Notes: a model not told the origin generated them from the letters alone. A stretch of 56,631 nt of DNA, filler included, from Jimgerdemannia flammicorona (GCA_003990765.1; 3 parts of 3 records of this genome joined end to end with filler, not necessarily neighbours in it), one strand, 5' to 3'; shown: positions 1 to 56,631, counted from the first letter of the whole stretch. Numbers and translations are program-made.

Positions 1-2548
1 CAACCCGGAAATTTGTGTGAGGTGCTATATAAGTGAGTGACGTTTGAGAGGGGGGCTGCAGAGGCGGGATAAAGGGGGATGCCGAATGAGATAAGGGAGG
101 TTGGGAAGAGGGCCAAAGTTGTATGGATAATATATGCGGAGATAGTGTATCTCGTTGGCTGGCACGTTTTCGATGCACTGTTTAAAAGAATATTGCATAA
201 TGATTAAAAGCATTGTAAATCTCTTTCCTGTGAGGGGTTCTAACAGTTGAGCGCGAAGAGAAATCAATATATTTCAGGCAGGCTTTTATCATTAAGGAGA
301 AGTTAAACTCTTTCGCAATGCGAGCAATACGATAAAATAATGGTTTTATTAATGTTTTTTCATTTATTTTATTTATTAGAAAATGAGTCTTTACAGTGGT
401 ATGCATATCATGTAAATGTTTGTACGCATCGTGAACGTCTGCATCAAATTTCGAAACATGAGATCGACGTCTCGTGACCGTGGCTTTGAAAGTACTTCTT
501 GTGTTTTGTGTCCCGTACCGTTCTACATTTCTCCATTTTGCAGTCCAACTTCGTAATAAGGGCCACAACGATTTGCAATCCCCCAACTGCTAGCCATTCC
601 ATACGAGCTAACCATCTTTGGCGACTATTTGCCATACCCATTAAGGTGCATCGCCACTCAGCCGGTGGCAGTGGCAAGTTGTCGCTCTGCTGCAATCTTC
701 ACCCATACACCAAAGGCAAGTCGCTGCAGCATCGCCGTTATACATCACTCTGCATATAATTTTCTCACAACATTTAATTATTCCCTTGAGACTATTTGCC
801 TCCCCAAGCAAGGCCCATTTTTGCACAGCGAGGTTTTCCGTCGTTTGGGGGCTGAAGAGCACCCACAGTGACAATTTGTCGCTCACAGGTAAATCATTGC
901 CCAGTAGCAGTTCGTTGTCCAGCGGAAATTCGTCACTTTTCGCCATTCCAAGCAAACCTTATCGTGGCGACGTTTGTTCGTCACCCAGCAGTAATGCAGG
1001 CCGTTACCCTTCCCCAAGTCGCTAGTTGTCGCTCTCCTGCAAGTCGTCGCCCAACGGCAAGTCGTCTCCTAGCGGCAGGAGCAGAAACTGGGTAGGGGAG
1101 GATGGTTAAGGTGATGATAGCTGTGGTAGGAAATGTGATTGTGATCGAGTGGGAAAAGAATGAGAATTGACATTCGGATGGAAACGTTTTGGTGCGGTGA
1201 TTCGAATTTTGGAATTGGGGAGAAATATTTGAGTGGTTTCAAATGTGATTAGGTAGCTCATTCCATGCTCCAAATTTATTAATCTAATTTTTTTTTTTTT
1301 GTATTCAACCCAGAACTGACAAAACGCCTGCTTCAGATCTAAAACAAATATACACATATTTTTACCTCCGTCAACATATCCAAGATCAAGGAAGACAAAG
1401 ACAATGTGATATTGTATATCGCTGAAGTTTCAAACGATCCGCAGAAGTGGCATATTTATGGGTATAGATACATTTTGTTAGATGGAGATTATTACTCCAA
1501 ACATGACTAGAAAGATCATCGATTAGTGGTGTTTCGATCGGAGCCTCCTCATCTCATCTCCAACGAACTTGTGGATGTATCAAATGGAATTTGGGACATC
1601 CTCTCCCTTTAAGCAATACTAGTAACAGAGGAGATAGTTTATATGATCAATTGTATTTTATAACCCATTGATTCAAATTGTTGGCTCTACTCAAATGCAC
1701 CAAATAGTGGAGGGTTTGACCTCAACCATCCCGTCCTTTTAATTCCACATGCCCAATTTTGACAAACAATTAACTTTATTCTTAATAAAAAGTATCACCT
1801 AAAAACAACGAGTGTATTGAAATATACAACTTGAGTAAAGAGCAATTTGTAGCTTGTATTTGAATATAGACATCATTAATGGTGATGCCATCATTTTTTA
1901 TGTCACCAATTTGGAATATATCAATAAACATCTCTACCACTTTCATGCTTTTCTCCAGAAAATCTAGTAAAATTCCAACAAAGTATAAGCTGGAGAGTAT
2001 AAAAGCAGAGAACAGTTGATCCCTACAAATTTATTGATAAGCATTCTTCAAAGATATATAGTTAAAGAAATTAATACTCTTCCCTCCCTCCCTCCCACTA
2101 AAAAAAAAAAAAAAAAAAAAAAAAATATTTATATATATATATATAGGTTTCAAGTTAATACTGTAGTCTTAACCTCAATTTACCATACTAGTGAGTATGT
2201 GGAGAGGTTTCTCAAAACAATTTTAAATGCATATAGATATCAAGTTATATACTTTCTATACTCTTGATCAGGCAGAATATTATATGAGGTATATAATTAC
2301 TTTAAAGTCTTAATATAGAAAATAGAATGGAGGAGTGATGTGAGCATAGTCTAATAGACTATAGTTTATATAGCTGGATAAATTAAATCCACAATATGGA
2401 AATATCAAGATTGTTGAGAGGTTATATTCTTATTTGTCAAAGATACTAAATCTAAAAGAAACAAGGTATATTTATGGTTATCTTGAATCTGAAAGAAATG
2501 CAAATTTGTTTAAAATTATGATGATATAAATAAAATTAGATTGGTCAA

Positions 2549-2698
2549 TATTGTGAATAAGTAGAGAGAGAGCTAAGAAGAGTACTTATTTATACATTCA
2601 ATTAGTAATATAATTAAGAGTAATATAGCCACATATAAGCCACATAAGTCACAAATTATTAAGATATAAATAATTTGAATTTTAATACTTCTGCTCAA
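2549..2698 (-). mobile_element. Eroded Ty1/Copia-type 3' LTR plus polypurine tract (relic)
   Basis: Starts tattgtgaat..agagagagag and ends ttttaata followed by cttctgctcaa. This matches the layout of the Copia LTR+PPT at 29054-29217 (tattgtggaat..gagagagaag..tttcaata cttctgctcaa). Confidence 0.5.
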
Positions 2699-2859
2699 TT
2701 AGATAATATATAAATTAGAATATAATAATATAAGATATAATAAACTAAATAATAACTATAAAATAACTCTAAATATTCTAAAAAGATACTATCTATATAT
2801 ACTTAAATATATCTTCATCTTTCTCTGATACAATTCAGATTATACAAACTTCTGATAAT

Positions 2860-4330
2860 ACTTTCAGTATTGTTTTTAGAGAAAAGATACTAATAATATA
2901 GTAACTGATGAGTATTTTGAGGAGTGTGCTAAGCAGGGAGGCTCCAGTATATTTGACTAGCAGAATATAGAGAGGAGTTATGGATTGAGAGAGAGTCTGT
3001 TGGGCACTCTCTCTAGTAGATGAGGAGGTGATTAAGACAGATCTAGCTGACAGAGGTCTAGAAGGATGAGCTTTGCCAATAAGGTCAAGGCTGAGCATCT
3101 GGAAACTAGATTAGAGAGATGGCTACAGAAGGGCAAAGAGAAGGAGGGGGCTGCGGAACCTTATATGAGAGCTCATAGTGGCAGTAAAAGTTGAGCTAAA
3201 GGAAAAGAGAATAGGGAGAGTAGGACTACTGATGGAGGAGAAACTACTAATCTGAAAAAAAATCCAGATATAATAGCTAATAGTGGGGCTGAGCAGGGGG
3301 GGGACCTGAGGTCTAGAGATCTGGTAGGTGGTATAATAGATCTGGTGGTAGTATAATTATTAAGAAATCAGTATCTGAATTTACCATCACATTGTGCTTC
3401 CAGGGCTTAGTAATCACAGTCAAAATAGTTCTAAGGCTTTTGATCTAAAAGGTAAAAGAAGCAGTATTAGTGAAGTTCTTAAAGAGTCTTGAATAAGTGA
3501 AAGTGGGCTTTAAGGAGGAGGAGTTGATGTTGAGAGTATTGAAGAAGGGAGTTGTAGTAGGAGGAGTAGTAATTTCTATAACCTGGTACCTATACTGAAA
3601 CCCACAAGTAGTATAGCTGGTGGTAGCAAATATATCTACAGTAAATAAGGAGGAGGCCAGAAGGTTGATTATTAATGTTATCAAGGAATATAATGATGTA
3701 GTAGGTATTGGATTTAGGGTTTGAGAGAATATCGAGTTCAGAACTAGAGATGTGGATGTTAGAGTGAGACTGGTAGGCAAGGAGAATACTGAAAAAGGAT
3801 GGAATTGGCTGATGATACTTAAGTAGGAGCTAGTGGAGTGCAAGGTCTCAAGAGTGAAAGAGATACCAGAGGAGAAAAAGAATTTGTAGGAGATATTGAA
3901 AGATCTGGCTGGGGTAGTAAAGAAGAGATAGTTGGCTTAGAAGGAGTTCAAGACTAAGATAGTAGTAAAAATTATGAATGACAAGAGAGGGCATCTGGAT
4001 CAGGCAGCCTGAGAGAGAGCACAGATGAGGCAGCTTTAGAAAAAGTTGTTGACAAAGCTGGGCAGAAAGGCAGCAGGAGAGAATACTACTAAAGAAGATA
4101 GATTAAGGGCTAGTACTTGGGCTGAGGAGAAGAAAGTAGTATCTATAGCAGTTCTGGGAGAAGATGGAGGCTTTGGGCAGAGTATAGTGGCTGAGGATGA
4201 GGTGATGATAGAGGAGGTGTAAGTTTAGTATAATGTGTCCTCAGATAGATAGAGACCTGATGAGTTACAGAATGTACTAGAGAAGGTCTGAGATAAGTTA
4301 GTAAGAATAAATACTGAGGGAGGCCCATTC
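2860..4330 (+). mobile_element. Degenerate non-LTR retrotransposon ORF1-like relic
   Basis: Purine-rich, almost CpG-free, stop-riddled frame at ~3450-3845 reading ..LVVANISTVNKEEARRLIINVIKEYNDVVGIGFRV*ENIEFRTRDVDVRVRL.., which resembles an L1/Tx1 ORF1 RRM region. Boundaries approximate. Confidence 0.4.
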
Positions 4331-6166
4331 ATTAATATAGTCAGATTCTTCAAAAGATACTGTACACTATATCTTCCTCTGCTATAGTAACTATTACTAT
4401 ACAAATTCATAATGATATCTTTCATATTCTAGCACCTGACTCATCATTTATATTATAGCCTTACACTAGCAGAGACCTTCTCTCTACTCAGTGAAAGAGA
4501 TTTCAAGTATCTCTAGAATATATATACTGGGAATATAGATTGCAATGATGGGATCCTAGAATGGAAAAAAGTTCATAATACTACTGAGAGATGATACTCT
4601 TGTCAATAGTGGTATCACTAGTTCTGTTCTGCTATAGTAGATGACAAAGTCATCAATCTTTCATCCTTACAAAAGGTTTGAATATCTTCCAGTACTTTAT
4701 ATCTGCCCCTCTGTCTGTCTTCTAGTTGTTAATCCACAAAACATAGTTGATAGAATTGATAATCTATAATATAGTAGAGAAGAAGAATGATATAGATTAA
4801 GTTAGAAATTTCAGAAAGAAGCAGATATGATTATTGAAAAGAGAGAAAAATAATAATACTAAGTCCTGTATAAAAATGGCCCACCCTAACCCTACATACT
4901 ATAATATATCTATAAAGCCTCAACTTCTGATCCAATATAAAAGTCAGCAAAACCCACCTCACTCTTTCAGAACATAACAACAGTATTATTGTTGGTGATA
5001 GAGATTTTGAGCACCTCAATTAAATATCATTGTAGTAGTTGCTCTTTAAATTGACTTTATATATTATATAGTTAAATAGTATAGAAATATGGATAAGAAT
5101 ATAATAAATATAAAATCATATTCTGTCATCTTATCAAAACAAAAATATATAATATATATAATATATACTATCTTAACTTCTCATTTTGTATTCTTTCTTT
5201 CTTTACCTTTTCTCCACTTCTTTCTCTCTCTCTATTCCTTACTGACTCACCCAAGTTTAGCTATAATTAATATATATATATATTTATATATATTAATAAA
5301 TTCTATAAAAATCAAAATATAAATTTATTTATCAACTTTTCTAACTTTTTAATAATAATAATATTAATTTAATTTTTATTATTATTATTAAATTTAGCTA
5401 TATTATATAAAATATATTTTAAAATATTATAATTGACTAAAATAATAACAATATAATATATTTTAATTTTATCTCTTAGAATATTTTATATAACTAATAT
5501 ATTATAAATTAGTTTCAATTTTTTTTTTTTCTATAAGCACTAGGCTCTAAGCACATGGTCTTTATACTATAATAGTAGCCCCAACCCAATCCCACCCTAC
5601 CTTACCTCAATAACACACTCCCTCTTCTCACTCTCTCTCTTTTAAAAACTACCAGATTATTAACTATCTCAATCTGTCTACTATTTCTCTTATATATCAG
5701 AAATCTATAGTAAGGGCTCCACTCAAGCTACCAGCTCAACAGAACATCCACCATCAACCCTTTCCTAGTATCAATTATTGTTATTTATAATTCTTAAATC
5801 TATTATTGTTTTTTTATCTTAAATTTTAATAATTATATATTTTAGATTTTTGAAACTATTTATTAAGAATGAGTATATATATTTAAAATAAATTAAATAT
5901 ATATTAATCATTATTAATATGGAATATTTTCCTGGCACAATTAATAGTAATTTTTATTTATTTTCTTATTCAAAGTGGAGTTCACAAGCGAAAAACTCTC
6001 ATGTATAATCATTTGTCGCCCTAGGTTGCAGAAAAGGAAAAAAGGGTCACAAGGTAAAACAGGTCTGTGACACGTTAATGGAACCCAGCCACCACTGCGG
6101 AATTTATCCCATCATCAACACCACAAACACGACAACCTCCTATCATCTAAAATTTTCATAAAACAT

Positions 6167-9100
6167 ATGTCCGCGTTTGCACCGATGTCCGTCCCCAAGT
6201 TGGATCATTGGGTCGATGGCGTCCCCACTTACTATTCTAACCCGGAGGACTTTTATGACGGCCTCAGCGCCGAAATACCTACATGGACCTCGGAACTGGG
6301 CGACGTGTACTACTGCCGTGAGGCCGCCGGCGCCCGCCAGACCGTTGTTATAAGGAAATACCTGACAAACGAGCAGAATTACGTCCCAAATAACTTTGGA
6401 ATCTCCACGGAGCTAGTCGAAAACGAAATATTCACCATGGCCAAATGCGCATTACATCCTAATATTCTGCGACTGCACAGCATCTATATCTACAATGGCT
6501 ACGTTTTCCTAGTGACGCCGTTCTGCGACGGTGGGACACTGTACCACCATTGCTTGGATAACTGTGTCGCTTTACCGCAAATGGTCTTCATCCTCAAAAG
6601 GGTCAGTATAGCGCTTAGTTCTCCTTGCGATGTCGAGTTGGCATTTGTGCGTGCTACGTGGGGATGTTGGGACTGCATGTAATAGTTAAAGTAATATGTG
6701 GCTCTCCCATCATTCCTATATACAAATATCGCAGCTCGTGTCAGGACTCATGGAAATTCACAAGCACGGCTACATCCATCGCGACATCAAAAGCGAAAAC
6801 GTCTTCCTTGGCAAAGACAACGCCGTCATGCTCGGTAAATACTTTGTCCAATTATGTCATACCGACAGGGTTCGCACATTCTAATCCCCCTCCTCCACCC
6901 CAACTTGCTTTATCTCTGTTCAGGTGGCTTCGGCGTCAGCTCTTTGACGCCTACTGTAGACTCGTCAGTCGAAAAGGCTGGCGTCACATTATTTTGGGCT
7001 CCGGAAATTTGTGAATGCAAGCTCATCGATCTTAAGGTTGATATTTGGGCATTAGGCATTGTAGTTCTCGAGATGCTCAACCACGGCAAGGCCCCCTACG
7101 AAGATGATAACTTGGAAGATGAAGAGGTTTGTTGTTTTCAATTTTACATATCAAAATTTTGCCTTGTTGCAATATATATATCATTGAATTAATTTTATAT
7201 GATTATTATGTTTAATATTAGATTAAGCGAAAAATTATTGAGCAAGGTCGACCACGCTATCCCGAGAATTTGGATAGCCAGCTGGCAGATTTCATGGATC
7301 AATGCTTAGAACGAGATCCTGAGCATCGCTCTTCTGCCAGCGATCTGCTTAAAGTATGTCATTTCCATTCTTTACAATGACATTCCCATTTATTATATTT
7401 CAGCAACGATTCCAAAGCCGTAATAGGTATATGACACTGACACTGACACATTCTCTCTGTTTTCCTTCATTCTGCTTGATAATCAACCTAGCATTCCCTT
7501 TTTTCTGCCTATGCCGAAGAGCCCCTATTTCCGCCACGACCTCGTCAACAACCTTCCTCGCAGTCGGAAACGTTGACCGCCCACACCTCCGAATTGCCTT
7601 CCCCCCATGGGGAAGCGTCGACTGGCAACACCTCCTCCACGCTATCCCCCACCGCCCTATCGGACATCAATGGAATGCCCGGTGTATTCAACGAATCTCT
7701 CACCCGAGAGGCGTCACCGCCGTCGTCCACGGACCACAGCTCCGCTAAGATTTGGCTCAAATATGCTGACTACGCATTCAATGTTTCTAGCCAGGAGCAG
7801 ATTGGTGAATTTGCAGGTATGTGATTTTATAATTATAGTGGTGACTTATAGTTAATAGGTGCACTTCATTGGCAACATTCTTTTTAGTTAGCACGGTGGG
7901 CATTTCTCGTAATTATTTAAGAATGCAAAAATTATCTTTAAAAATGTGATTCGTACATATATTCAAAATCTTCATGAGGATCTTTGTTGTAGACATAATT
8001 TGCACCAAAATGGAGCTAACTGTTATCCTCACTTTAAAATCAGATAAAAGAGCCAGTGATATAAAAATATTTGAACTGATCGAATCCCTGAAGAATAACA
8101 CAACCCTGACAACGCTGAATCTCAGAGGTATGTTAGAAGTATGTGAACTGGTTTTGGCTTCTGTGTGCTGATTCTAACTTGTATAAATGTGTTTGATCCA
8201 CCGTCTTCTGTTCATCTTCAGCCAAAAATATTGGAGCTGATGGAGCATGTGAACTTGCCGAGTCTCTGAAACAGAACATAACTTTGACAACACTGAAGAT
8301 CAATTGTACGTATGACCAGTGACAACTGGTGCTTTCGGTTGCGCGATGAGCTCCAACTCATCACCGTTCCTCAAACCGTTGTTATATTTCAGCCAACATG
8401 ATAGGTGGTAGGGGAGCGCGTGCGCTGGCCGGGTCGCTGAAGCAAAACTGGACTCTGACCACGTTAGAACTCGCTTGTATGTTGTAATTGTATGAACTGT
8501 TGATTGCAGCTGCTTGATGAAAACCAGTTTCACAATCTTTGCATTTTTTCATTCACCTTCTTTCCATTATCAGGCAACAACATTGGCTTTGAAGGAGCAC
8601 TCGTCCTGGCCGAGTCTATGAAGACGAATACGACCCTGACCAAGCTTAATCTCGAATGTATGTTTGAACTGTATGAAAAATTGTTTGCAGCTGTTCCATG
8701 CATTCCCGTTTACAATCTCTTTATTTTTTGAGCATCTATCCTCTCTTCATTTTAGCCAATAACATCAGCATAAAGGGAGCATGTGCACTGGCGGAATCTC
8801 TGAAAGAAAACATGGCCCTTTCTAAGCTGAATCTAAATCGTATGTTATAAATGTTTTAAACTTCTGTTATTATTTCCTTGATAAGTTTTAGCTGACATTA
8901 TATTGTTAACTAATCTATCTCCTATATATCAGGCAATAAAATCGGTGATATAGGTGTTCAAGCCCTGGCCAAGTCCCTGGAGTCGAGCACGACCCTGACC
9001 ATGCTGTATCTCAAATGTATGTCAAAAATACATGAATTTTGAATATAACTGCATCATGAGTTCCAGCCCATGAAAATGCGATCGTCTATTTTCTGTTTAT

Positions 9101-11549
9101 CTTCAGGCAACAAAATCGGCACTAATGGAGCACGCGCACTGGCCGAGTCACTGAAGAAAAACGCGACTCTGACGGTGCTTATACTTGAATGTATATTCGA
9201 TTTATATGAAAAATTATTTGCAGTTGTTCATGGGTTGCTTTCACAACTTATTTATTCCTGAATATCTACTCTCTGTTCATCTTCAGCCAATGACATCAGT
9301 ATAGAGGGAGCACGCGCACTGGCGGAATCTCTGAAGCAAAATACGACCTTGTCTACGTTGAATCTCAATCGTATGTTAGAACAGTGTGAAATGTTTTTTA
9401 TATAGCTATAATGAGATCTAGCTGATATTGGATGTTTGGTTCATCTATATCTTACTCATCTTCAGACAACAAAATCGGCGATATCGGAGTGGGTTCTTTG
9501 GCCAAGTCACTGAAGTGGTGTACAACCTTGACTAAGCTAAGTCTCAATTGTATGTTAGAACTGTAGAAATTATTTTTTACAGCTGTGTGATATGTTTCAG
9601 TTTAAGATATAAGCATGTTTGCTTACTATCCTTTATTCATCTTTAGGTACCAACGTCAGTGATGTGGGAGCACGTGCACTGGTTGAATCTCTGATACAGA
9701 ACTTTACACTGAAAGAGCTTAATATTTTTGGTATATTAAAATGCAAGACCCATTTTTTGCAAGTATCTAGATCGCGACCCTGTATATTCTCTAATCATTT
9801 CCTTGTTCAATTTTAGGGAACAATATCAGTCGAACGTATGTAAGCTTCCTAGCAGTGGCTCGGCAAAGGAACTTGACCTATCAAGGTATGTTTGAACTAT
9901 GTATCTTCTAAAATTTTCAACCGTGTGGCGGAAAACAGCTTACAATATTTGTGTATTTCCCAGTCCCAAGCCTTTTGCCTCGCACTCTATCTGGCATATC
10001 CTCAAAGTCCGCACAAACCTTTGATCGGATTCAATATATGCTAAAAAAGTTAGATATGAGCATTATGTCAACGCCTAAACTCAAGTTTCCTAATGACGAG
10101 AGCAAGCTCTTGGAGTGTCTGGACAAGCTACAATTGGTTGAACTTGCAGCTTTCATGGTTTGGATACCTTACAACCAATTTACCCTGATGGAAAAGTTGG
10201 GCGAAGGGGGATTTGCCACTGTACACAAAGCTGTAGTAAACAGTGGTCCGAACTACGGAAAATCGGTTGCGTTGAAAATTTTAAAAGATAGCATCATAGT
10301 AATAGATCAACTGCGTAATGAGGTAGGTAATTATCCGGCCAGAGTTGCAAAGTTAAATATTTACAATTAATTTATATTGCAATCGCTTGATTTGTTGAAA
10401 ATAGCTATTAGTCAACATTTATCTCCAGCTTTGCAACAAAAGCCGTAGAGTAGCAATGCCTGCAATCATAGGATTATCAATGGAGAATTCAACCAGCCAT
10501 TATATTATTATAATGGAATATGCAGCTGGTGGTAACCTTACCCAACTTCTTGAGAATTCCCCACCGAATTCCTGGTTGAAAGTGTTGCGGATTGCGACAG
10601 AGATCACTCGCAGATTGCAACTGATTCATGAAGCAGGATTGATACACAATGATTTGCACCCAGGAAACATTGTGTTTCTCGGTACAGACGAGGCTAATCC
10701 CATTATCATTGATGTTGGCATAAGCAATACTCCGGAACATTTGGGTCAACGTGGTGGTTACATCTATGGACGGATTGAGTATCTCCCACCGGAAGCGTTC
10801 GTATTCAAGGAGGCTATTAGAACTTGCACGCAAAAATCTGACATATACTGCCTTGGAACACTTTTGTGGCAACTTACTGCAAGGCACTGCCCTCGTAGAA
10901 ATGCAATGCATCCTCCCGATGCCGCCCCCGTTGGATTGCGCGAAAAACCCATCCCTGGCACGCCACCCGAATATTCAGATATCTACAAGAGATGCTGGAA
11001 CCATAACCCCGAGATGCGACCGGCCATCGACAATGTGTTGGATAATCTTTATAGTATAGAGTTAAACCTTGCCAATGCAGATTGGCTGGACAACATCCCT
11101 GAGGCCTTGGCCCATTTCGAAAAAATCAAAGCCGAGATGGGCTCTGGAGTGTCCGAGTTCATGTTCGTTGAAGGATCCAGCAGTCGGTATCACACAACGT
11201 CTCAATTGGAAATTAGGCAAGTTTCGTACCCATTTGACATATACAAATATTCAATTTATGTTATTGTGTATGGCCGTTTTTGTTTTCCTGCTAAATCTAA
11301 AATTCTTATATTGGCAGCGGCATAATACTGTCAAGGGTACCAAAAAGCATTCAGCCCTACAGCGCTTCGCACAACAGCACTCCGCACAACAGCACGCTAC
11401 ACAACAGCACGCCGCGCAACAGTGTTCCGCCTAATAACTCTCCGCCCAAAAGTGCTCCACCCAAAAGTACTCTACACAACAGACCTCCCTCCAGCGGCGT
11501 TATACACAATAAAATCCCAACTGGAGATCGAGAGAGATGGAAATTGTGA
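6167..11549 (+). CDS. Multi-exon protein: N-terminal STE20-like pseudokinase, S/P/T linker, 10 RI-like LRRs, C-terminal TKL-type kinase (~1168 aa)
   Basis: Frame-consistent exons: 6167-6601, 6735-6834, 6924-7126, 7222-7353, 7492-7816, 8044-8127, 8222-8305, 8393-8476, 8574-8657, 8756-8839, 8933-9016, 9107-9190, 9287-9370, 9466-9549, 9647-9730, 9817-9885, 9964-10322, 10405(or 10429)-11216, 11318-11549. Kinase 1: HPNI, HRDIKSEN, GGFG, FWAPE, DIWALG. Kinase 2: GEGGFA, VALK, HNDLHPGN, DVG, YLPPE, SDIYCLG. An alternative last donor (GT at 11221) would end the CDS at 11434. Confidence 0.85.
8044..9730 (+). repeat. Tandem exon-intron array: ten 84-nt LRR exons, ~178-bp period
   Basis: Each exon encodes 28 aa (xNxIxxxGAxxLAESLKxNxTLTxLxLx). 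All introns are phase 1 and share gtatgttagaa-like starts and ttcatcttcag-like ends. Confidence 0.92.
11363..11481 (+). repeat. Degenerate 15-bp tandem repeat in last exon
   Basis: cactccgcacaacag / cacgctacacaacag / cacgccgcgcaacag / tgttccgcctaataa / ctctccgcccaaaag / tgctccacccaaaag / tactctacacaacag. Confidence 0.8.
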
Positions 11550-12165
11550 TAAATGGAAGCTGTTGTAAAAATTGGTTTTTTATCAATAGCTTTCGTTAAT
11601 AGGATAGAGTTTAGTTCATTTATATACAACATTAGGAAGTTGTAAATAATTCTATATAAATTAGAAATTATTTATTATAATTATTTTAAAAAAAAAAAAA
11701 AAAAAATTAATATAGTATTAGTTTTGTTTGGTATAATATATTATTTTTCAATAGGTCAATATTTAAAATTAATACAATATTTCCATTTATTTCATTAGAT
11801 ATAATATTATAAAAATACTTAATAGTAATATATATAGAAATAGTATTAATAAGAATTTTTTTTTTTTTTATTAAATGGTAAATATTTATAGTACTAAGTT
11901 AGTATAAGTAATTTATATCTGAATAATCTATAATAAATTATAATACTTTTTATAAAAATTTCACTATTATCTTTTTAAATATATTGTAAAATTAATATTT
12001 ATATATTACTATATTATATAATTAATACTATAAAGATTCTCTATATTTAATAAGATTATAGATATATAAATTTAATATATCTTAAGTTTAATTTAATTTT
12101 TTTTTTTTTTTTACTTTAATATAGAAATAATAAGTTTCAAATTATATTTATAATAATATATATGT

Positions 12166-15100
12166 TGTGATAGTTGATCTAAATCAGGAATATAAATTAG
12201 AGAAATAGATATTTAATTACAGTACTTGAATCTGATTCCAAAATATAATATAGCCTTATAAATAGCAGTCATATTTTATAAACATTAAAGTTTTTACAAA
12301 TGATAAACTCTTCACAAATATTGAGATTTCACAGATGTTAAAGTTTTGACAATTGTCAAAAATTTAATAGATATCAAGAATTAATATTTATAAAAAGTAA
12401 CTTACAGGAAATATAGTCATAACTTAGTTACCTTATTTAGTAAACTTATATAAATATCTCCAGTATTTAGAATAAATAAAACCTCAGATTGAAATAGTTC
12501 TAAGTAAAGAAAAAGTAAGAGAACTAGTAAGCCTGCAGGCAGATATATAGAACTTACTCACTCTTGTATCCTAAGAACTCTGTAGAGTCAAAGAAGATCA
12601 AGTTTTTAAGATATAGAATTCTGATATACTTATACAGTTATACATCTACTATATTATAACCTGGTATCCATTGACTGGTAATTTAAGATGAATTTCTCAC
12701 TTTCAAGCTAGATAATGAATAACCACACAAATCAAACCAAAATATCTAGATAATATAGATATGAGATCACTAGTATCTATAGATATATCTTAGATAAATC
12801 AATCACTATATTCATTGATGACTTTGAGCAGTATGGACCCTAACAGCAAGATAGCAAGTAGCCCTCATTTCCTTCAGTCTCTAAGAACCAGCAAGAGCAG
12901 AATTTACAACTATAATCTATATAGAAATATTAATAATACCATACTAGCAATATAGAAGACCTGGCTCTGAACTATCTATTATATAGATAAGATCAAGCAA
13001 GCTCTAAAGAATCAGCTCAATATAATATATTAAGAAATGAGTAAGGATTCAAACATATTATATACAAGAATCTAATATTAGATAATCCTTATAGATTATA
13101 CTGCTGCTATTCTAAACTAAGTAGTAGAAGTAATCTTTATAAAAGAAGTCTATCCAGAGATAGTTCTGGTTATCTGCTTATTATCAGTAGTTCTGGATCT
13201 AGCACAAAAGATCACCTATACAAAATAATACTGGATAGCCAGACATCTATAAGACTATATAATAGAAAGAGTCACTGGAGTCAGAATTGAAATACTTAAG
13301 GCAACCAGTGTGATTTCTACCAAAGTGATCAATTGAAACACACCTCAGCCAAAAGCCATATATATATAGAATAATAGAGAAACAGTGACCCTATAGAGTA
13401 ACTTACTAAGAAGTTTGTCAAAATAACTATCCATCTTAGAGATATTGTAAAGAAAATTAGAAAAAGAGATAGCTACCCAGTTCAGAAGTTTGCTACCACC
13501 CCAAACAAGAAAAGAGATACCTGTTATACTTGTAGAGAAGAAGGCCACTACTCACATAAATATATGAGTAAGACCAAGTACAAAGCTTAGTCAAGTAATG
13601 CTATAAGAAATAATGAACAGGCCAATACTATTACCTTTGAAGAAATTAGAGAATCAGATGAAAAAGAATAGAAAGTCTACCCCACTAAGACTATCAAAAA
13701 GAATGTTTACAAGTAACTCTATAAGAGATCTCCAGAGAGACTCAAGATGAGCACTGTGGAAAAATAGATGGAAACTATTACAGAAAGCTAAGATGAAGAA
13801 ATAGAATCAAGATATAGAGCTGAAACAGGCTATTTAAGATATCATTTGAGAAACTACTCCAGCTAGTGAAGGAGAAAAGAAGAAAAAGCTCCACAAGATC
13901 AAGACTTTCAAGTATGATATCTTCAAGAACCTCAGTCAATATAAGGTCAATATAATGTTTGGCCAGTTAGCAGAAATACAAATATTTAGATAGCAAATAA
14001 GATATAGACTTGCTGAGATAACTAAGAAACAAGAATAGAAAATAACTGAGGCCAATAATATTCAAGAAGACTCTGGAGAGAAGAGCAAAAATAATTACAA
14101 GACATCTGCCTCTATACAATGTATCAAATTTAAGATAGAATCTTTGAGGCTATTATTGATACTAGAGCAGGAGAATGCCTTCTCAGCAAGAAAGCAAGAC
14201 TGCCTAGGTTGAGAGGTTGAAGAAGTAACCAAATTAGTATTCATTATAGCAGATAGTATAAGAGACATATCTCTAGGAAAGATCCAAGATATTTCCATCA
14301 AGTTTGGAGGAGCAACCATCTCAGTAGTTATAATTATAACTAATACTACTAACTATAACATTCTTATCAGCAATCAGTGGCTTTATAAAGCTAGAGCAAT
14401 AATTGACCTCAATGCCCAGAAGATGTAGATCATCTACCAAGGTCAGGAGATATGAATTCCCATCAATATCAACAAAGGAGTACTGCCTGAAATAGAGAAA
14501 GAAAGCAAGTAAGAAACCTATATAGTAACTACACAGAAAAAGAAGAAGAAAGGATAGATTAGTGAAGAAGAATAGTATAAAAAGATCATTAAAGAGTATG
14601 TATCACAAGGAGTCTGCCCTCATGGAATCAAGATATACTATATGAAATACATTGATAATTGCTACCAATATATCAGCAGAATTAAGAAAATCTACTAAGA
14701 AAGAAGACAAAAGACTCTTGAAAAATAGGCAAGACAAGAAAAGAAAGAGGAAGAGAATGATAAATCAGTAGCCCTCCTAGAGGACAGTAATAATGAAGAA
14801 GAAATCAAGGTCAAGATTTGGAAAATCCACTCTAATATAGTTCTATCAGAATATAAGTCAGAGAATATAGCTGAAATAGATATTACCACAGTAGAGAAAA
14901 CTGTACTAGAGTCCTAGACAACTACCCTGCTTGTAATGGGTCTGAAAATGACCATTCTAAAGGACCATATTAGGGTCCTCAAAACAAGAAGTAGTCTGGT
15001 TAAGAGTGAGATTACTATTGAAGGAGGAGTCATCAATTTAGACTATATTAGAGAAATACTACTCATTACTAGGAACTACAATCCTATGATTCTGTTTTCA

Positions 15101-15227
15101 ATCAAGAAGAAGGACTAATTGGTTCAAATGTTAACTTCTTAGTTCTTCAGCCAAAGATCATAGAAGTCAAGAAGTTGGAGGAGAAGAAAAGGATTCTGAT
15201 CTACTGAAAGAGAAGTATTTGCTAGCA

Positions 15228-15229
<2 letters not shown>
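12166..15229 (+). mobile_element. Heavily eroded Ty3/Gypsy copy related to family A: 5' LTR (12166-~12658), PBS, gag, protease, Cys/His module, dUTPase; cut by LINE tail
   Basis: Colinear with the reverse complement of ~23230-26310. LTR starts TGTGATAG, the shared leader follows it, and dUTPase motifs RSSL and GGVINLDYIREI are visible (ORF 14936-15118). Many C>T/G>A stops. Confidence 0.85.
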
Positions 15230-15262
<33 letters not shown>

Positions 15263-18200
15263 GTCCCTTGGACTGCCCTTTATTACTGCCGTCTATAATT
15301 CTAACAATACAATGTCACCCCAAACCCTCAACCAATGCCCCATGGACCCAACTCTCCCCTCTTGACCTCCCCCTGCCCAAGTACAACCCAACCCCCCACT
15401 ACCTGAATCCTCCCACCACTCTTTCAAGAGATACACTATACCAAACTCCTGTGATTCTCCCCACCTGGCCCCCACCCTTGCCACCAGCTATTCAAAATGT
15501 CCAATAATAACCATTCCCAATGCACCACCTTGTCCCCAACCCCAACCCACCATCTCTCCTCAAATACATGAACCCAATACCCAGCCAACCCAACCCACAT
15601 AGCCAGAGCCCAACCAAGGATCAGCCATTTGTCCCCAACCCCACCCATCAGTCTCTGGTGGAGCTCTCTCCATCTCCCCCCTTCCCCTCCCTCCAAGGCA
15701 CACAACTCTAACCGATTCATAATATATCTCCAAAACTCCTCCAAAACCTCGCACTCACTAAGCCAATGTTCAGGTATTTGTACCACTCCTCCCTCCTGAC
15801 CAACATTGAAACATTCCTTACACTCAAATACTCTACCATCCACTAAGTGCCCAGACCAATAGTTCAACATCACATTCTGCTGTAGGACTTGCCACCACAC
15901 CACCCAGAACTTGGGGGGCAGCCACTGCCTTACTTGTTTGCTCCAAAGCCAGAGTCCATTCCAATCCCACTCCTCACCAATTCCAACCCTCTGCCAGGCT
16001 TCAGGCCACAGGTCTCCACCCAAGCCCTGCAGACACTCCATACTCTCGCCAAGCTGAAAATCCTCCACTGGAACACCACTCAGTAGAAGCCTGTCCTACC
16101 ACCACATCTGTGGTCCCCAATCCTCCTCGGCTTCATCACCTTGCCACCAAAGTCCAATTTTCTTAGCACCATCTACCACCCCTAACCAAAAGCCTGTAAA
16201 CCGCATCCTTCTGCTCCCATCCATGTTCACCATCACAAGCAGGTCACCAGAGTCACCATGAGGGGAATACTGAACCTCCCACAACCTCTGCATGAGTAGC
16301 ACCCACTCCCAGCCCCTTAGCTCACTTGCTCTCCTCAACCACCAAGCTCTCAAGCAGTGAAGCTGCTTAGTGAAATCAACTAAACCTAGCCCACCTCTTT
16401 TCATGGGCAGTATGAGCACCTCCCAACCCACCTGGCTTTGCCACCCTCCCCAGATCCATGACCTCACCATCTTCAACAGCCCCCTGACCACCCAAGTTGG
16501 GAAATCCAAATGATACCCCACATACCACAGCTTCAGCATCCAATACACATTCAGCACCATCACCCTTCCAGCTAGAGATATATGCTGACCTCCCCATCAC
16601 AGCAGAACATTTCCCCACTCCAGAAGTTGCTGGTTCCACCATGCATGGGGAAGAAGAGATCCAAACACCAAGAAGTAGATCCCCAAATACCACACTGGAT
16701 CACCAGCCAGCACCACCATCCCAATTACATCACCACCAATAATTCCAGCACCCAGCACCAGAGTCTCACATTTGTGCCAGTTTAGTTTAGCACCAGAACT
16801 CCTCTCATACCATTTCACAGACCTCTGTAACTCTCCCACATCCATCAAGGAGCCCAGCCCGACCACCATATCATCAGCAAAGGCCCCCACCTTCCAATTA
16901 ATCCCTAAAATGTCCAAACCCCCAATCCAATGCTGAATTCTGTCCAGTAGGGGCTCCAAGGAGAGGGCATACAATATGGGTGACAAGGGGTCCCCTTGCA
17001 GCACCCCCCACCTCAGGGGAAAGGTCACTCCCCTGTGGCCATTGATGACCAATGCCACCTAACTGTCCTCCAAGAGACTGATCAATGACCCTCAAAACCC
17101 TGGGGGGAGATCAATCCATTTCAGTACTCCCTCTAGCCAGATCCTCCGCACTCTATCATAAGCCTTCTCTTGATCCAGAAATACCAACTGGCCATCCACC
17201 CCTATAGCCCAGGCACCTTCAATCACTCCATATACCCAAGCTGTCCCATTGCAAATCAACTGGTCACTGACAAACTCATGCTGCTCTACACCAAGCACCT
17301 GCTGAGTGATTTCTTGCAGCCTCATTACTAAGATCTTCATCACCAGTTTGCAGTCCATGTCTAGTAGCATGATCAGCTGCCAGGTCTTCCAATCTTCCTG
17401 CCTTCTCTTATTCTTGTAGAGCAAGGAAACTAGTCCTAGGCACTGGCCCCCAATCCAAGTACCAGACTGAAGAACCTCATCACACATAGCAGTCATTTCC
17501 TCTAGCACCTTGCCCACCCCAGCCATCTTCTTCCAAAAATCCCAGATGAGCCCATCCTCCCCCGAAGCTGTCCTCTTACTAGTTGAGGCCACAATCTTGC
17601 AAATTTCCTCTCCACTCACTGGGTCCCCCAAAGCCCCTAGACCAATCACAGGGTTTGGGTGCCAATCCCCCAGCTGCCTTTCAATGTCTAAAGCATCTAC
17701 TCCTTCTTCCTCCTCACTCTATAGATTCCCCCAATAGGTTCTCAGTATACCCAGAATTGCCAGAGTCCCCATCACTAGCTCGCCATTTGTATCCAGAACT
17801 CCTTCTCACTGCTGCTTTATTTGTTGTGCTTGTAACAACTGCATTAAAAACTTAGTAGGCCTCTCCCCCTCCTCAAGCTCCTGCCACTACAGTCAGCCCA
17901 CTATCTCCTGCAGCCTCACCTCCTCCCTTCTTAAAACTCCTTTAAGCTCCTCCACCTCCTTTTGGATTTGCACAATATGTCAATCAGTCACCTTCCTATC
18001 TTCTAGCACACCTGCCCATCTCTCCATGAGTACCACCAGATGCTGTGAGGCCCACATCATCCACTGTTGTCACTGGGCACACCTTCCTTTCCCTGCTTCC
18101 CTCCAATACCCCTGAGCATTTGCCTTCAGTCTCCTCTAGCAGTCCCCAATCCCCAGGCCCTGTTCCCACCACCTTCTGATATTTCTGACAACATCCATTT

Positions 18201-18813
18201 CCCAACCCTCCCACAGAGCTCTATCCTCCAACAATGAAGAATTTAACTGCCAATGTCCAGGCCCATCCTCACTTCCCCCAAACCTCCCTCCTCCAAGCAG
18301 CCCCCAGTGATCAGACTATGGACACCAAACTACCTCCAGCACTATCCAGACATCTGCTCCCCAATACTCTGCTGTCAAAACCCAGTCAATTCTAGAACCC
18401 AGCCCTGCTGCCCAATAGGTGTACACCTGCCGATTGTCCCAAAACTGTCTTCCCAAGTCCACTAAAGAACTCAACCTCTCTGTCTCCAACCAGTCACCCA
18501 ACCCATCACTCTCACTCTGCATGTCTCTCTCTCTATCTGTTCTATCTATCTCCTTATCCCGTACTATGTTGAAATCACCCCCCATGCAGTCCAACCCAAC
18601 CTCTCTCAAGACACTGGCCTCTTTCAACCTATGAATCCAATCCACCCTCTCCCCTCTCTCAGCTGGGCAGTAACAAGACCCAACTGTCAATGAGCCCCAT
18701 CTAGATCTCTTCCACACTCCCCACACCACCCAAGACCCCCAATGTCCAATGTCCCCAATGTCCCTCATCCCTTTCTGAATGAGAATACCCACTTTCTCCC
18801 TCCATACCACCCC
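15230..18813 (-). mobile_element. Non-LTR retrotransposon (L1/Tx1-like ORF2: APE endonuclease, RT, C-terminal CCHC), degenerate; 5' end lost in gap
   Basis: GGDFN and SRIDW (endonuclease); LDQEKAYDRV, GVLQGDPLSP and FADD (RT); CKEC..EHWLSEC. AATAAA then a poly(A) tail seen as a T-run at 15230-15259. Stops and frameshifts present. Confidence 0.92.
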
Positions 18814-18913
18814 NNNNNNNNNNNNNNNNNNNNNNNNNNNNNNNNNNNNNNNNNNNNTTAATTAATTAANNNNNNNNNNNNNNNNNNNNNNNNNNNNNNN
18901 NNNNNNNNNNNNN
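18814..18913. other. Assembly gap with artificial TTAATTAATTAA spacer
   Basis: 44 N + TTAATTAATTAA + 44 N = 100 nt. Confidence 0.97.
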
Positions 18914-18960
<47 letters not shown>

Positions 18961-18974
18961 TCTAGATAACTAGA

Positions 18975-19405
18975 TTTAATTTAAGAAATATTTTATTTTA
19001 TCTTGATATTTAATTATAAGAGTACTAATATCTTTGTCTATCTATCACTAGCTTGTAGCTATCTATACTATCTTATAGTCCATTGCTATCTTACAGTCTA
19101 TTGCCATCTTATGATCTATTATTATCTTGTAGTCTATTATCATCTTGCAGTTCTTACAGCTATCTATACCATCCTGCAGTCCTTTTAATTCAAGTAAGAT
19201 TTTATTTTATCTTGATATTTAGTTATAGGAATAACTCTAATATCTTTATCTATCACTAGCTTGCTGCTATCTATGCTATCTTATATTCTATTACTATCAT
19301 ATAGTCTATTGCTATCTTATAGTCCATTGTTATCTTATAGTACTTTGCTATCTTGTAGTTTATTACTATCTTATAGTCCTTGCAGCCATCTATACCATAT
19401 TGTAG
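18975..19405. repeat. Two-level tandem repeat: ~210-bp duplication, each copy holding 18-bp units
   Basis: ttttattttatcttgatattt..tatcactagcttg occurs at ~18990 and ~19200. Each is followed by several ctatcttatagtc(c/t)attg-type 18-mers. Confidence 0.7.
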
Positions 19406-20553: not shown

Positions 20554-23500
20554 GATATTTCTTGAGTCGGTTTCGGTGAATGGTGGTGGGGATTATTGTG
20601 CCTGAGGGTTTCCATAGCCAAAAGGTGGTCCCTTTTATATCTTGCACAAGGTAAGGTCCTTCCCACTTGGGCTCCAGTTTTCATGACCATGAAGCTTCTA
20701 CCATGTTCGGATATACTAGGACTTTGTCTCCTATCTTGATAATCTCCAAGGGCTTGTGGGTCTTTTCCGCATTCCTCCGTTATAGTATCTGTGCCTTGGT
20801 TATGTAATCCTCAGCCTTCTTCCTGATTTGGTGTAGTCTCCGTATTTCTATATCCACATGTTTCCATACAGCATCTCTATTGGATGATAGGGTTTCTTGA
20901 GAACATTCTTCTCCAAACAGCATTTCTTGAGGGGTAAAGTGGGTACTTTGTGATCGGATATCCCAGAGAGCAGATAATGCTATTGGCAGATAGTGATCCC
21001 AGTTCTCATAGTTATCACAGATCTTGGTGATAACATTCTTGAGGGTTTTGTTGGTCCTTTCTACTTGTCCGTTTCCTTGAGGGTGATAGGCTGTGGTCCG
21101 AATGTGCTGGATCTTGTATTTCTTGGAGAGAACTTCGAAGAACTGGTTCATGAATTCTGTTCCTCTATCTGTAGTTACTTATGTTAGGGTCTTGAACCGA
21201 CAGATGATTTCCTTATGGAAGAAATCGGCGATTGACTATGCATTGGCTTCCTTGAGGGGTCCTGCTTCTATCCACTTCATAAAAAGGTCTACAATGACAA
21301 TGATATATTGGTTACCAGTCAGGGTCAAGGGTAGAGGGCTGATTACATCCATTGCTATATGGGCAAATGGTACTGGTTCTATGTGTGCTGATCCTGGAGC
21401 TTGATTCCGTTAGTCTTGTTTCTGTTTCTGGTATTTGTTGTATGTTTTGATGAATTGTCTGATATCTTCCTCTATCCCTGGCCACTATATTATTCTTCTT
21501 GCCTTATTGTATGTATTCGTTCCTCCTAGATGGCCAAGTTCATGTACTGATTTCATCGCTTGCTCCTTCTTGTGTTCTGGTATGACTAGTAGTTTTCCTT
21601 TCTTCAGTGTTTCTCCATTGGTTTTGAATTGTTTCCATGTCCTGTTGATAATTGTTTGTGTCCATTCTTCCAGATGTTGGGGCATCTTTCGCTGTCCTAG
21701 GTATGTGATAATTCCATAGTAGAGCTCCTTATTCATGATTGATCTGTTGGTTGGAGGTAGTTCAAGGTGTCCATGAGAGAGTATCTGCATTGGAATTTGT
21801 TCTTCTAGGGCGGTATACAATGGTTATATCATAGGCTTGTAACTTCATTATCCATTTGGCATAGATTCCTTTGGGTTGTCCAGTTGTCAGTAGCCAGGTG
21901 AGAGCTGAGTGGTCCATCTGGATGGTGAAGTGTCTTCCAGCCAAGTAGTAGTGGAACTTTTCTATGGCCCAGATGACTGTGAGGCATTCCAACTTGTAGG
22001 ACTCGTATTCTTTTTCAGCTCCTCGGGTTCTGCAGCTAAGATATGCAATAACATACTCCTTTTTGTCTTCTTTTTGAGCTAGGACTGCTCCTAGTCCCTG
22101 TGCACTTGCATCCATCTGAAGGATAAATTCTTGGGTCCAATTGGGTCGTCTGAGGATAGGTGCCTGGGTCAGTCTGACCTTGAGTTCATCAAATGCTTTC
22201 TGTTGTCTGCTAGTCCACTGGAACTTGGTATCCTTCTTATTGAGTTCGTAGATTGGACCTGCGATGTTGGAGAATCCTCTAATGAATCTGCAATAGTAGG
22301 AGGCAAGTCCCATGAAGGCTTGGGCTTCTGTAACAGTGGTGGGTCTTGGGTATGCTGCCACTGCTTGTATCTTGAGGGGGTCTGTGTGTGTTCCGTCTCG
22401 ATTGATAATATGGCCAAGATAGGAGATCTCGATTTCTGCAAACTTGCACTTCTTGGGTTTGATATAGAGGCCATGTTGTCTTAGTCTCTCCATTATCTAC
22501 TGTATGTGCTGCAGATGTTCCTCAGGTGTCTTGCAGTAGGTGATTACGTTGTCAACATAGACCATCATCCATCTTCCCATGTCATAGTGGAAGATTTTGT
22601 TCATTATATGCTGGAAGCTTGCTGGTGCATTGCACATTCCGAATGGCATTTGTAGGTAGATGTAGGTTCCGTCTGGGGTGATGAAGGCTGACTTTTCACT
22701 TGCCATTTCTGTGAGTCTGATTTGGTAAAATTCTGAATATAAGTCCAAGGTGCTATAGTACTGTGCTTCATCTCCCAGTATTATAAAGATGTCACTGATG
22801 AGTGGCAGTGGTTGGCAATCCTTCTTGATAACTGCATTGAGCTTTCTGTAGTCGACACAGAGCCTTGGGGCAAATTCTCCAGGTTTGCTTCCTTTTTTCG
22901 GAGCTAGTACAACTGGTGAAGACCAGGAGCTACTGGCTTCTTTGATGATGCCAGCTTCTTCTATCTGCTTGATTTCTTCTCTGAGCCATTCTCGGTAGGC
23001 TGGTGGGACAGGTCTTGCTTTCTGGTAAATTGGTTCAGTGTCTCCAGTATCTATCTCGTGATAGTAGTATGGGGTCTTTCCCTTGATATCCTTGAAATCT
23101 GTGGCAAAGACATCCTCGAATTCGTGGAGTATTTTCTTGAGTTCCTCCTTGAGTGGGAATTCATCTCCAATTGTGTAACTGTGCTTGCTCATGTTTTCCT
23201 CCTTCTTATGCTCGAGTTCAGTGATCTTGGTGCTGGCGAATACTCCTCTTCCTGTGGATCTGAATCCTTTCTTTCCTCTTTTCATTTCCTCCAGATTCTT
23301 GACTTCTATGATCCTTGGCTGTATGATCGGGAAGATCAACATCTGTGCCAATCGGTCCTTCTTCTTGACTGGGAATGGAATTGTAGGATTGTGGTTCCTA
23401 GCAATGAGTAGAATTTCTCCAGTATAGTCTGAATCGATGACTCCTCCTTCAATTGTGATTTTGCTTCTAGCCAGGCTGCTTCTTGTCTTGAGAATCCCGA

Positions 23501-25720: not shown

Positions 25721-25834
25721 CTTGTCTAGGTATTGGGGCTCAGTTTGTATGGTTGTTCGGGTAGTGTCAGTTGTTTGTTGTTCAGCTTGAAAGTGAGGGA
25801 TTCGTCTTGAATCACCAGCTAATGGGCACCAAGT

Positions 25835-26310
25835 TGTAATGTAGCAGATGCTTACTCTTGAAAGTATGTCAGATTTCTGTATCTTGAAAACTTGACTGTT
25901 CTGACTCATGCAGAGTCTCTTGAAGTTGCAGGGGAGGGTGGGTGAGTTTGAAGTGTATCTGCCCACAGGCTTACTAGTTCCTTTGCTATCTCTTTGCTTT
26001 GAACTATTTCAATCTGAGGTTTATTCACTCGAAGATACTGGATTATTTATACAAGTTTGCTAGCTATGAGAGGGTGGCTAAGTAATAAATGAGTCATTTG
26101 GACTTTGTCGAAACATTTGGACAATGTCTAAATGCTATACTAAATCAGGACATTCCATTTGGATAATGTCTAAAATTTAGACAATGTCTAAGAATTTAGA
26201 CAATGTCGAAATCGGCGACTGCTAACTATAAGGCTATACTACTTTGGGAATAGGTGCAATCAAATGTCTATTCCCTATTTCCTTCTTCCAAATTTAGCTA
26301 TACTATCACA
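25835..26310 (-). repeat. 5' LTR of family A element
   Basis: TG..CA ends, 476 bp, followed on the minus strand by ACT + TGGTGCCCATTAGCTGG. Confidence 0.95.
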
Positions 26311-44443: not shown

Positions 44444-44543
<100 letters not shown>

Positions 44544-56596: not shown

Positions 56597-56631
56597 TGTC
56601 AAAATTTTGTCTTTTTTTTTTTTTTTTTTTA

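Follow-up and report, generated by a model that had tools for sequence, protein, structure and literature searches.

Do the kinase-like and leucine-rich repeat (LRR)-like fragments that crowd one locus of Jimgerdemannia flammicorona (GCA_003990765.1) belong to a single gene, and, if they do, what kind of protein would place a string of repeats between two kinases of different groups? The fragments lie on the plus strand of a stretch of 56,631 nucleotides (nt), hereafter the window, which joins three parts of three records of this genome end to end with filler, and they alternate between the plus-strand frames (stop-to-stop open reading frames (ORFs) and three-frame translation, 6100-11600). 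We found that 6167-11549 forms one open frame of 19 exons, which runs from the ATG at 6167 to the stop codon at 11547-11549 and codes for 1168 amino acids (aa) with zero internal stops; the 18 introns measure 78-227 nt, 17 of them being GT-AG and one GC-AG (11217-11317). The gene is real and expressed: spliced contigs from two public runs (X1 and X2) together support every junction but 8839/8933. The central claim of the initial annotation, that a degenerate STE20-like kinase, ribonuclease inhibitor (RI)-type LRRs and a TKL-like kinase share one spliced frame, was thus borne out. The parts of the gene are as follows.

6114..6166, plus strand: 5' leader of at least 53 nt, counted from the start of X1 record 1 at 6114
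6167-6601, 6735-6834, 6924-7126 and 7222-7353, plus strand: exons 1-4, predicted PAK/STE20-like pseudokinase (kinase 1), aa 1-290
7492..7816, plus strand: exon 5, Ser/Thr/Pro-rich linker, aa 291-398, zero Pfam families, covered by X1 record 1
8044-8127, 8222-8305, 8393-8476, 8574-8657 and 8756-8839, plus strand: exons 6-10, LRR exons of 84 nt
8933-9016, 9107-9190, 9287-9370, 9466-9549 and 9647-9730, plus strand: exons 11-15, LRR exons of 84 nt
9817-9885, plus strand: exon 16, last LRR exon, 69 nt (exons 6-16 make up aa 399-701)
9964-10322 and 10405-11216, plus strand: exons 17-18, conserved pre-kinase linker, kinase 2 (about aa 775-1036) and conserved C-terminal extension
11217..11317, plus strand: GC-AG intron of 101 nt, supported by the joint in X1 record 4 and by the depth fit
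11318..11549, plus strand: coding part of exon 19, low-complexity Ser/Pro/Asn-rich tail and stop, aa 1084-1168, zero Pfam families
11550..11651, plus strand: 3' untranslated region, up to the end of X1 record 4 at 11651, where a genomic A-run follows

The contigs of both runs, placed on 5900-11800, skip the predicted introns at GT..AG. Two joints mattered most to the initial annotation, those that tie the repeats to the kinase on either side, and both were supported. For 7816/8044, X1 record 1 (1644 nt) carries 6114-6600, 6923-7124 and a piece (7492-7813) that is followed by 384 letters from farther downstream, that is, exons 1-5 onward; for 9885/9964, X1 record 2 (1246 nt), which begins in exon 11 and contains the joints 9016/9107, 9190/9287, 9370/9466 and 9549/9647, continues with a piece beginning at 9962 (9962-10320) joined to 10403-10856, and at both places the depths agree. 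The same four LRR joints recur in X2 record 6 with zero differing letters, and X1 record 4 has the joint 11214/11316 (equivalent to 11216/11318) and extends to 11651. The repeats are thereby tied to kinase 1 on one side and to kinase 2 on the other, contrary to the two separate genes that the initial annotation had allowed for. Depth tells the same story: when the depth expected per 197-nt bin was computed from three X1 contigs placed exactly on the exon model, expected and observed values lay within about 0.2 of each other in 20 of 30 bins (e.g., 4.96 vs 4.96 in 8461-8657, and 1.14 vs 1.29 in 7870-8066); in bin 7476-7672 the observed depth was 0.67 above the expected one, and in the other nine it was far above it, less similar, paralogous contigs piling up there. 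Two variants of the model were discarded, namely an exon 18 beginning at 10429 behind the AG at 10428, the start being 10405 by X1 record 2 and the depth fit, and a micro-exon at 7404-7426, with which the frame hits a stop.

Kinase 1 has the fold of a kinase but, by its motifs, probably not the activity. Searched one exon at a time against Pfam, exons 1-4 match the Pkinase profile at positions 12-92, 108-138, 142-201 and 225-259, in order and without overlap, which is independent support for the splicing. A STE20-group kinase fold was found in both comparisons made with P0019, a public protein model whose identity to exon 1 is 99%: among solved structures it matches PAK1, PAK2 and PAK3 best (E 3e-31), NEK1 next, and after that the STE20-group kinases MST3/STK24, PAK4 and SLK, and its Atlas model reaches a template modelling score of 0.84 to PAK clusters that bear a PBD. 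In the alignment to PAK1 the catalytic loop HRDIKSxN is kept (HRDIKSEN in kinase 1) and the Asp of DFG is replaced by Gly (GFG), while phmmer leaves the N-lobe before residue 145 of P0019 unaligned. The beta3 Lys (VxIKK) is Arg in kinase 1 and in P0019 and Lys in three further models, P0020, P0021 and P0022, and the region of the Gly-rich loop is short and degenerate in kinase 1 and in all paralogues compared. Neither the features of catalytic competence (Gly-rich loop, beta3 Lys, DFG Asp) nor an N-terminal PBD/CRIB were found in kinase 1; because the former three are lost, it is predicted to be unable to phosphorylate, and its motifs are those expected of a dead derivative of PAK kinases. Since P0020 retains both the beta3 Lys and DFG, and P0022 has the Lys but GFG, the dead state would be derived within a young family. 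Directly after the pseudokinase, at the start of exon 5 (7492-7560), stands a proline-rich motif, PLFPPRPRQQPSS, that is identical in P0019, P0021 and P0022, and the remainder of the linker diverges, with long Ser/Pro/Gln repeats in the paralogues. The motif is a candidate docking site, e.g., for SH3 domains.

Between the two kinases lie ten successive 84-nt phase-1 exons and one of 69 nt, each coding for one RI/NOD2-type LRR in a 28-residue register (xNxIGxxGAxALAxSLKxNxTLTxLxL). Half-repeat matches to LRR_6 are weak and under the cut-off (7 of 11 exons, E 0.017-0.19), yet two LRR exons of 27 residues searched singly against the PDB have 5irm/5irl, chains of 830 residues, as their best matches (E 6.6e-9 and 9.8e-8), followed by DRC5, ribonuclease inhibitor, LRRC34, tropomodulin and RanGAP1. 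The paper entitled 'Crystal structure of NOD2' cites 5IRM (PMC4906405). The array grew via duplication of exon-intron units: the block 8570-9022, with exons 9-11 and their introns, is repeated at 9103-9555 (exons 12-14) with 73% identity over 457 nt, and the exon pairs 9/12, 10/13 and 11/14 are 74, 82 and 70% identical in nucleotides, compared with 50-68% for all other pairs. At 50-82% nucleotide identity the repeats are old and divergent, and they are not homogenised. All repeat exons being in phase 1, the gain, loss or skipping of a unit would preserve the frame.

Kinase 2 comes from another kinase lineage. Exons 17-18 match PK_Tyr_Ser-Thr at positions 2-39 and 66-258 (E 2.6e-20), and because its solved relatives are led by MLK1/MAP3K9 (1.3e-14) and RIPK1 (2.5e-13), with MLK4, ALK, DLK (MAP3K12), RIPK3, CTR1 and TNNI3K following, we place it in a TKL-like group; its likeness to RIP kinases is at group level only, MLK1 scoring better than RIPK1 and ALK similarly. 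It retains GEGGFA (GxGxxA), VALK, the alphaC Glu, HNDLHPGN and DVG. These motifs make it a kinase of the non-RD type that still has the catalytic Asp, the Asn and the Mg-binding Asp, and it is probably active.

The closest relatives of kinase 2 are proteins of Endogone and related fungi (51-59% identical), the top matches being from Endogone sp., P0001 (51%) among them, and a Logan protein (57%), and then from Gigaspora and Rhizophagus; the nearest Atlas clusters are likewise Mucoromycota kinases. Both flanks of the kinase domain, namely the linker before it and the C-terminal extension behind it, are conserved in P0001 and P0002 (compared by eye with the window translation; for P0002, phmmer aligned query residues 1-268), and for that reason kinase 2 can be regarded as a reusable module. 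Both its closest relatives and its shared flanks place it in the expanded Mucoromycota TKL family. How large that family is can be judged from an exhaustive search, which returned 209,957 representatives at E<=1e-3; tightening the cut-off to E<=1e-10 left 5,662 of them, and E<=1e-30 left 91. Among the 62 best, a ranking that favours multi-kinase proteins, domain scores being additive, 47 have 2-10 TKL-type kinase domains (Pfam, E<=1e-6), seven have Sel1 repeats, and ankyrin repeats, MLKL_N, TLDc and Ras/Roc occur once each. An N-terminal caspase domain is fused to the kinase in P0001 (Endogone sp.), MLKL_N stands with three kinase domains in P0030, and a Ras/Roc GTPase with three in P0038; these fusions suggest a combinatorial repertoire with a flavour of cell death. 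A Glomeromycotina expansion of MLKL-like, Sel1-bearing proteins is described in a passage of an earlier publication (PMC8778642). None of the 62 best representatives has LRR_6 at E<=1e-6, a threshold that could miss weak LRR matches, and none was found at E<=0.01 in a second scan of 23 proteins (15 of them new), i.e., in 0 of 77 relatives overall. The ESM Atlas returned only generic kinase clusters for both kinases, none with an LRR, and a metagenome scan with kinase 2 gave 64 loci, all distant (<=38% identity over about 55 or more residues, and 42-53% only over shorter stretches). Kinase 2 is thus a module of a known Mucoromycota kinase expansion that has been combined with many partner domains, and LRR and PAK-like partners are new among the proteins examined.

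The protein seems to be soluble and to carry few other recognizable parts. None of the 19 exon translations matches NACHT, NB-ARC, Roc, COR, CARD, death, TIR or PBD domains (Pfam, E<=1), and no transmembrane helix is predicted, because the most hydrophobic 19-residue stretch (Kyte-Doolittle mean 1.74) falls within a charged helix of kinase 1. The initial annotation had been right on both counts.

No second copy of the gene was found within the window; kinase 1 has paralogues in the same species. A protein search with exon 1 gave four matches, all four from J. flammicorona and all kinase-only models: P0019 (99%) and P0020, P0021 and P0022 (52-59%). P0019 (468 aa) stops five residues past exon 5 through read-through into intron 5, and the models P0021 and P0022 stop at the donor homologous to that of exon 5. 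Contigs that are just 90-95% alike, 33 of 44 in X1 and 53 of 75 in X2, accumulate over LRR exons 7-8 and 12-13 and over some stretches of kinase 2, where they reach depths of as much as 226 (X1) and 618 (X2) vs 10-13 for the allelic contigs, and several of their loose ends look by eye like additional LRR units; we take them as putative expressed paralogues. With at least three kinase 1 paralogues in the same species in addition to these contigs, the locus is not the conserved single-copy housekeeping gene that the initial annotation had named as the outcome fatal to its view. When exon 17 was searched against proteins of at least 210 aa, one match only was obtained (Rhizophagus clarus, 38%), and exon 18 against proteins of at least 460 aa gave 18 matches, zero of them with LRRs and zero from Jimgerdemannia. 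The three-part protein is thus absent from the protein collections searched; most likely, the 84-nt exons defeat gene prediction. In the main texts of the literature searched, no published description of a pseudokinase-LRR-kinase protein was found for Jimgerdemannia, the Endogonales, the Glomeromycotina or the Mucoromycota. P0019 also begins 65 residues farther upstream, at an ATG near 5920, through two additional small exons. In the window allele the frame of this extension is closed by indels in the leader: the other allele has 10 nt more, inserted behind 6141, and, as the protein suggests, one extra base near 6108. Translation of the window allele can therefore begin no earlier than the ATG at 6167, and the extra residues of P0019 may either stem from a faulty prediction or exist in one allele only.

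The X1 contigs represent a second allele that keeps the same frame, and all six listed non-synonymous differences in exons 1-5 are residues of P0019. Kinase 1 plus the linker differ at six non-synonymous and two synonymous positions, the covered LRR exons at one non-synonymous (in the last, degenerate repeat) and zero synonymous ones, and kinase 2 plus the tail at three non-synonymous and six synonymous ones. With about 3.4 times more non-synonymous sites, a rough estimate of the ratio is about 0.9 in kinase 1 and about 0.14 in kinase 2, which fits a relaxed or fast-evolving pseudokinase beside a constrained enzyme under purifying selection. The fast-evolving family suggested in the initial annotation finds no support in the LRRs: they show no sign of hypervariability between the two alleles (one difference vs eight in kinase 1 plus linker and nine in kinase 2 plus tail), and the repeats are old and divergent.

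What might such a protein do? We lean, with moderate confidence, towards a soluble signalling protein of 1168 aa that works as an LRR-gated kinase. Kinase 2 would be the sole catalytic output and, being non-RD, would probably not be activated through the usual RD activation-loop phosphorylation; kinase 1 would act as an allosteric or docking partner of kinase 2, or as a bait; and the horseshoe of eleven NOD2/RI-type LRRs between them would bind a protein or a small ligand. Binding would alter the contact between kinase 1 and kinase 2, releasing kinase 2 to phosphorylate downstream targets. The gene probably arose in the Endogonales by the joining of a lineage-specific family of PAK-like paralogues to a module of the expanded Mucoromycota TKL family, and its LRR array expanded through duplication of exon-intron units. 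Several points weigh against this proposal. That the two public runs are of RNA is a guess, their origin from spliced RNA being deduced from the exact skipping of introns, and the junction 8839/8933, in the middle of the repeat array, is bridged by no contig among those listed for X1 and X2. With 20 differences in total the allele counts are very small, and by a rough estimate kinase 1 and kinase 2 do not differ significantly in them. The activity states of both kinases are readings of motifs, and kinase 2 has oddities, with His for the Lys of the catalytic loop and Val for the Phe of DFG; because its relative P0001 has Asn for the catalytic Asp, part of the family may be inactive. Finally, no relative of the same three-part architecture was found in the protein, Atlas or metagenome searches.

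Among the alternatives, that of an immune or nonself receptor survives best, and we hold it to be possible though unlikely. In such a receptor a NOD2-like LRR sensor without a NOD would be coupled to a RIPK-like kinase, with the dead PAK-like domain as a decoy for effectors directed at PAK kinases, so as to sense cytosolic microbes (e.g., endobacteria), parasites or nonself and to trigger defence or cell death. The LRR exons do match NOD2 best, kinase 2 is non-RD and near RIPK1/MLK, among its relatives a caspase domain is joined to the kinase in P0001 and MLKL_N in P0030, kinase 1 differs between alleles by six non-synonymous vs two synonymous changes, and there are paralogous families and DNA rich in transposable elements (TEs) downstream; plant tandem kinase proteins, moreover, are described as immune receptors, and non-RD kinases have reportedly been linked to innate immune signalling in different kingdoms (PMC8463890). 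Set against this are covered LRR exons that are nearly invariant between alleles (one difference) and repeats that are old, at 50-82% nucleotide identity, unlike the homogenised, length-polymorphic repeats that a passage on fungal NLRs describes (PMC4986451). The protein is also without any NOD, death-fold, TIR, HeLo or RHIM element by Pfam (no dedicated search for the RHIM motif was made), and RI-type LRRs occur as well in the non-immune DRC5, LRRC34, RanGAP1 and tropomodulin. If the protein were nevertheless an immune receptor, the tandem-kinase or LRR-kinase receptor idea would have been assembled independently a third time, and there would be an experimental handle on how these fungi deal with endobacteria, hosts and nonself.

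It is unlikely, we think, that the protein is instead a scaffold of the mitogen-activated protein (MAP) kinase type, in which a dead MAP4K-like (STE20/PAK) kinase and a MAP3K-like (MLK-like) kinase are held in one chain while the LRRs bind a small GTPase or an adaptor, with a role in signalling for stress, polarity or development. Kinases of the STE20 group stand upstream of MAP3Ks, and here a PAK-like kinase 1 accompanies a kinase 2 that is closest to MLK1/MAP3K9 and DLK/MAP3K12; P0019, P0021 and P0022, the three paralogue models long enough to include the proline-rich motif, all conserve it, and the LRRs are conserved between alleles. However, kinase 1 is without the PBD/CRIB of PAKs, its family was found in one species only (four of four matches), and kinase 2 comes from a lineage-specific expansion and not from a conserved group of MAP3K orthologues.

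That the gene is a mere by-product of domain shuffling in a TE-rich genome, a transcribed chimera with little or no selected function, seems to us very improbable. The TE-rich surroundings, the near-neutral rate of kinase 1 between alleles and the lack of an orthologue of the same architecture in our searches would all suit it, but the 19 exons and their 18 splice sites are unbroken in both alleles, and kinase 2 has both an excess of synonymous differences (six vs three) and its catalytic residues. Least credible, and largely refuted, is the notion of two or three separate genes or of a frame artefact across unrelated ORFs, for although P0019 ends after exon 5, no contig among those listed for X1 and X2 spans the whole gene and 8839/8933 is not among the listed joints, X1 record 1 continues for 384 nt onto the LRR exons and record 2 links the LRRs to kinase 2, the unbridged point lies at a 93-nt intron inside a uniform array of phase-1 exons, and both the read-through of P0019 and the ends of P0021 and P0022 look like a failure of gene prediction on 84-nt exons.

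The surroundings on which two of these alternatives draw are uneven. The initial annotation had described the gene as an island between TE blocks, which could be shown for the downstream side only: there, TE-like DNA begins at 12438 and shares 75% similarity with 23231-26062, read on the opposite strand. On the upstream side, 1-6000 has few ORFs and a high AT content, with GC falling to 21%. Farther downstream are a reverse-transcriptase block (16.6-17.7 kb), two Gypsy-like elements with protease, dUTPase, reverse transcriptase and RNase H (21.8-24.3 and 37.9-39.5 kb) and a Copia-like element (30.8-33.0 kb). The two Gypsy-like copies, at 21762-24343 and 37923-39488 on the minus strand, have the dUTPase between protease and reverse transcriptase (E 4e-25 each) and are about 66% alike over 3 kb. 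Strand asymmetry is strong in 15001-19000 (GC skew -0.41 to -0.56), where minus-strand ORFs at 16597-17715 match RVT_1, and this block is probably an element resembling long interspersed nuclear elements. A simple repeat at 18914-18960 recurs near 44440-44516. The end of the window (50800-56631) is GC-richer (46-57% GC), with plus-strand ORFs of 139-331 aa without a Pfam match, and may be another gene or an unclassified element.

Returning to the LRR-gated kinase, its architecture has consequences for how such proteins are sought. Arrays of 84-nt exons seem to defeat gene prediction, and censuses of domain architecture in such genomes may be biased. Passages of two fungal NLR surveys report no LRR motifs (PMC4986451, PMC12881547), and a passage of a 2025 survey gives as few as one NLR for some Mucoromycota species (PMC12258605). 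A cytosolic protein in which NOD2-type LRRs are joined to a RIPK/MLK-like non-RD kinase shows that early-diverging mycorrhizal fungi may have LRR-based intracellular sensors of a kind invisible to NOD-centred searches. A bolder and distinctly doubtful proposal is that the Endogonales, in which canonical NLRs may be few and endobacteria may live in the cytoplasm, rely on an overlooked family of receptors without a NOD, where a NOD2-type LRR sensor is wired directly to a RIPK-like non-RD kinase, with a dead PAK-like domain as bait or brake. If true, these would be a one-chain, independently assembled counterpart of the NOD2-RIPK2 axis and of plant tandem-kinase receptors, missed by standard annotation because each LRR occupies its own 84-nt exon.

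Among known systems, the plant tandem kinase proteins (Rpg1, WTK1/Yr15, WTK4, Lr9 and Lr41) are the ones to which the initial annotation had likened this gene. They are described as soluble chains of a kinase and a pseudokinase without NB-ARC, sometimes with an integrated extra domain, that act as intracellular immune receptors. The likeness holds as far as the layout goes, with two kinase/pseudokinase domains in one soluble chain without NB-ARC, and fails for the kinase lineages. Plant tandem kinase domains derive from plant receptor-like kinase lineages, whereas this fungal gene combines a PAK-like kinase 1 with a Mucoromycota TKL kinase 2, and it has its pseudokinase at the N-terminus and eleven RI-type LRRs between the kinases. 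The expanded TKL kinases of the Glomeromycotina and Endogonales differ in another way, their tandem domains being all of TKL type, whereas kinase 1 is STE20/PAK-like and LRRs are added. Dead kinases placed N-terminal to active ones are also familiar from JAK (JH2-JH1) and GCN2, for which allosteric autoregulation is the usual model; the kinase lineages are unrelated, however, and the domains are adjacent there, whereas about 410 residues of linker and LRRs separate them here.

NOD2 signals through RIPK2, so that in animals sensor and kinase are two proteins, whereas a similar LRR and kinase are found here in one chain; no NACHT, CARD or RHIM was found by Pfam (a dedicated RHIM search was not made), and the likeness of kinase 2 is at group level only (E about 1e-13). 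With the NLR/STAND proteins the gene shares LRRs of the superstructure-forming RI/NOD type, but it has no NACHT/NB-ARC. The ROCO/LRRK proteins likewise unite a cytosolic LRR array and a TKL-group kinase, although LRRK LRRs are not known to be of the 28-residue RI type; here Roc and COR are lacking, only 73 residues with no Roc/Ras match lie between the last LRR and the kinase, and there is an additional N-terminal pseudokinase. Kinase 1 is closest to PAK1-3 among the PAK/Ste20 kinases, but without their PBD/CRIB, Gly-rich loop, beta3 Lys and DFG Asp, and, unlike RIP kinases, the protein shows no RHIM, death domain or CARD in its tail or linkers by Pfam, again with no dedicated RHIM search. The protein therefore stands outside the NLRs, ROCO/LRRK, plant tandem kinases and RIP kinases, and yet it might still work like several of them.

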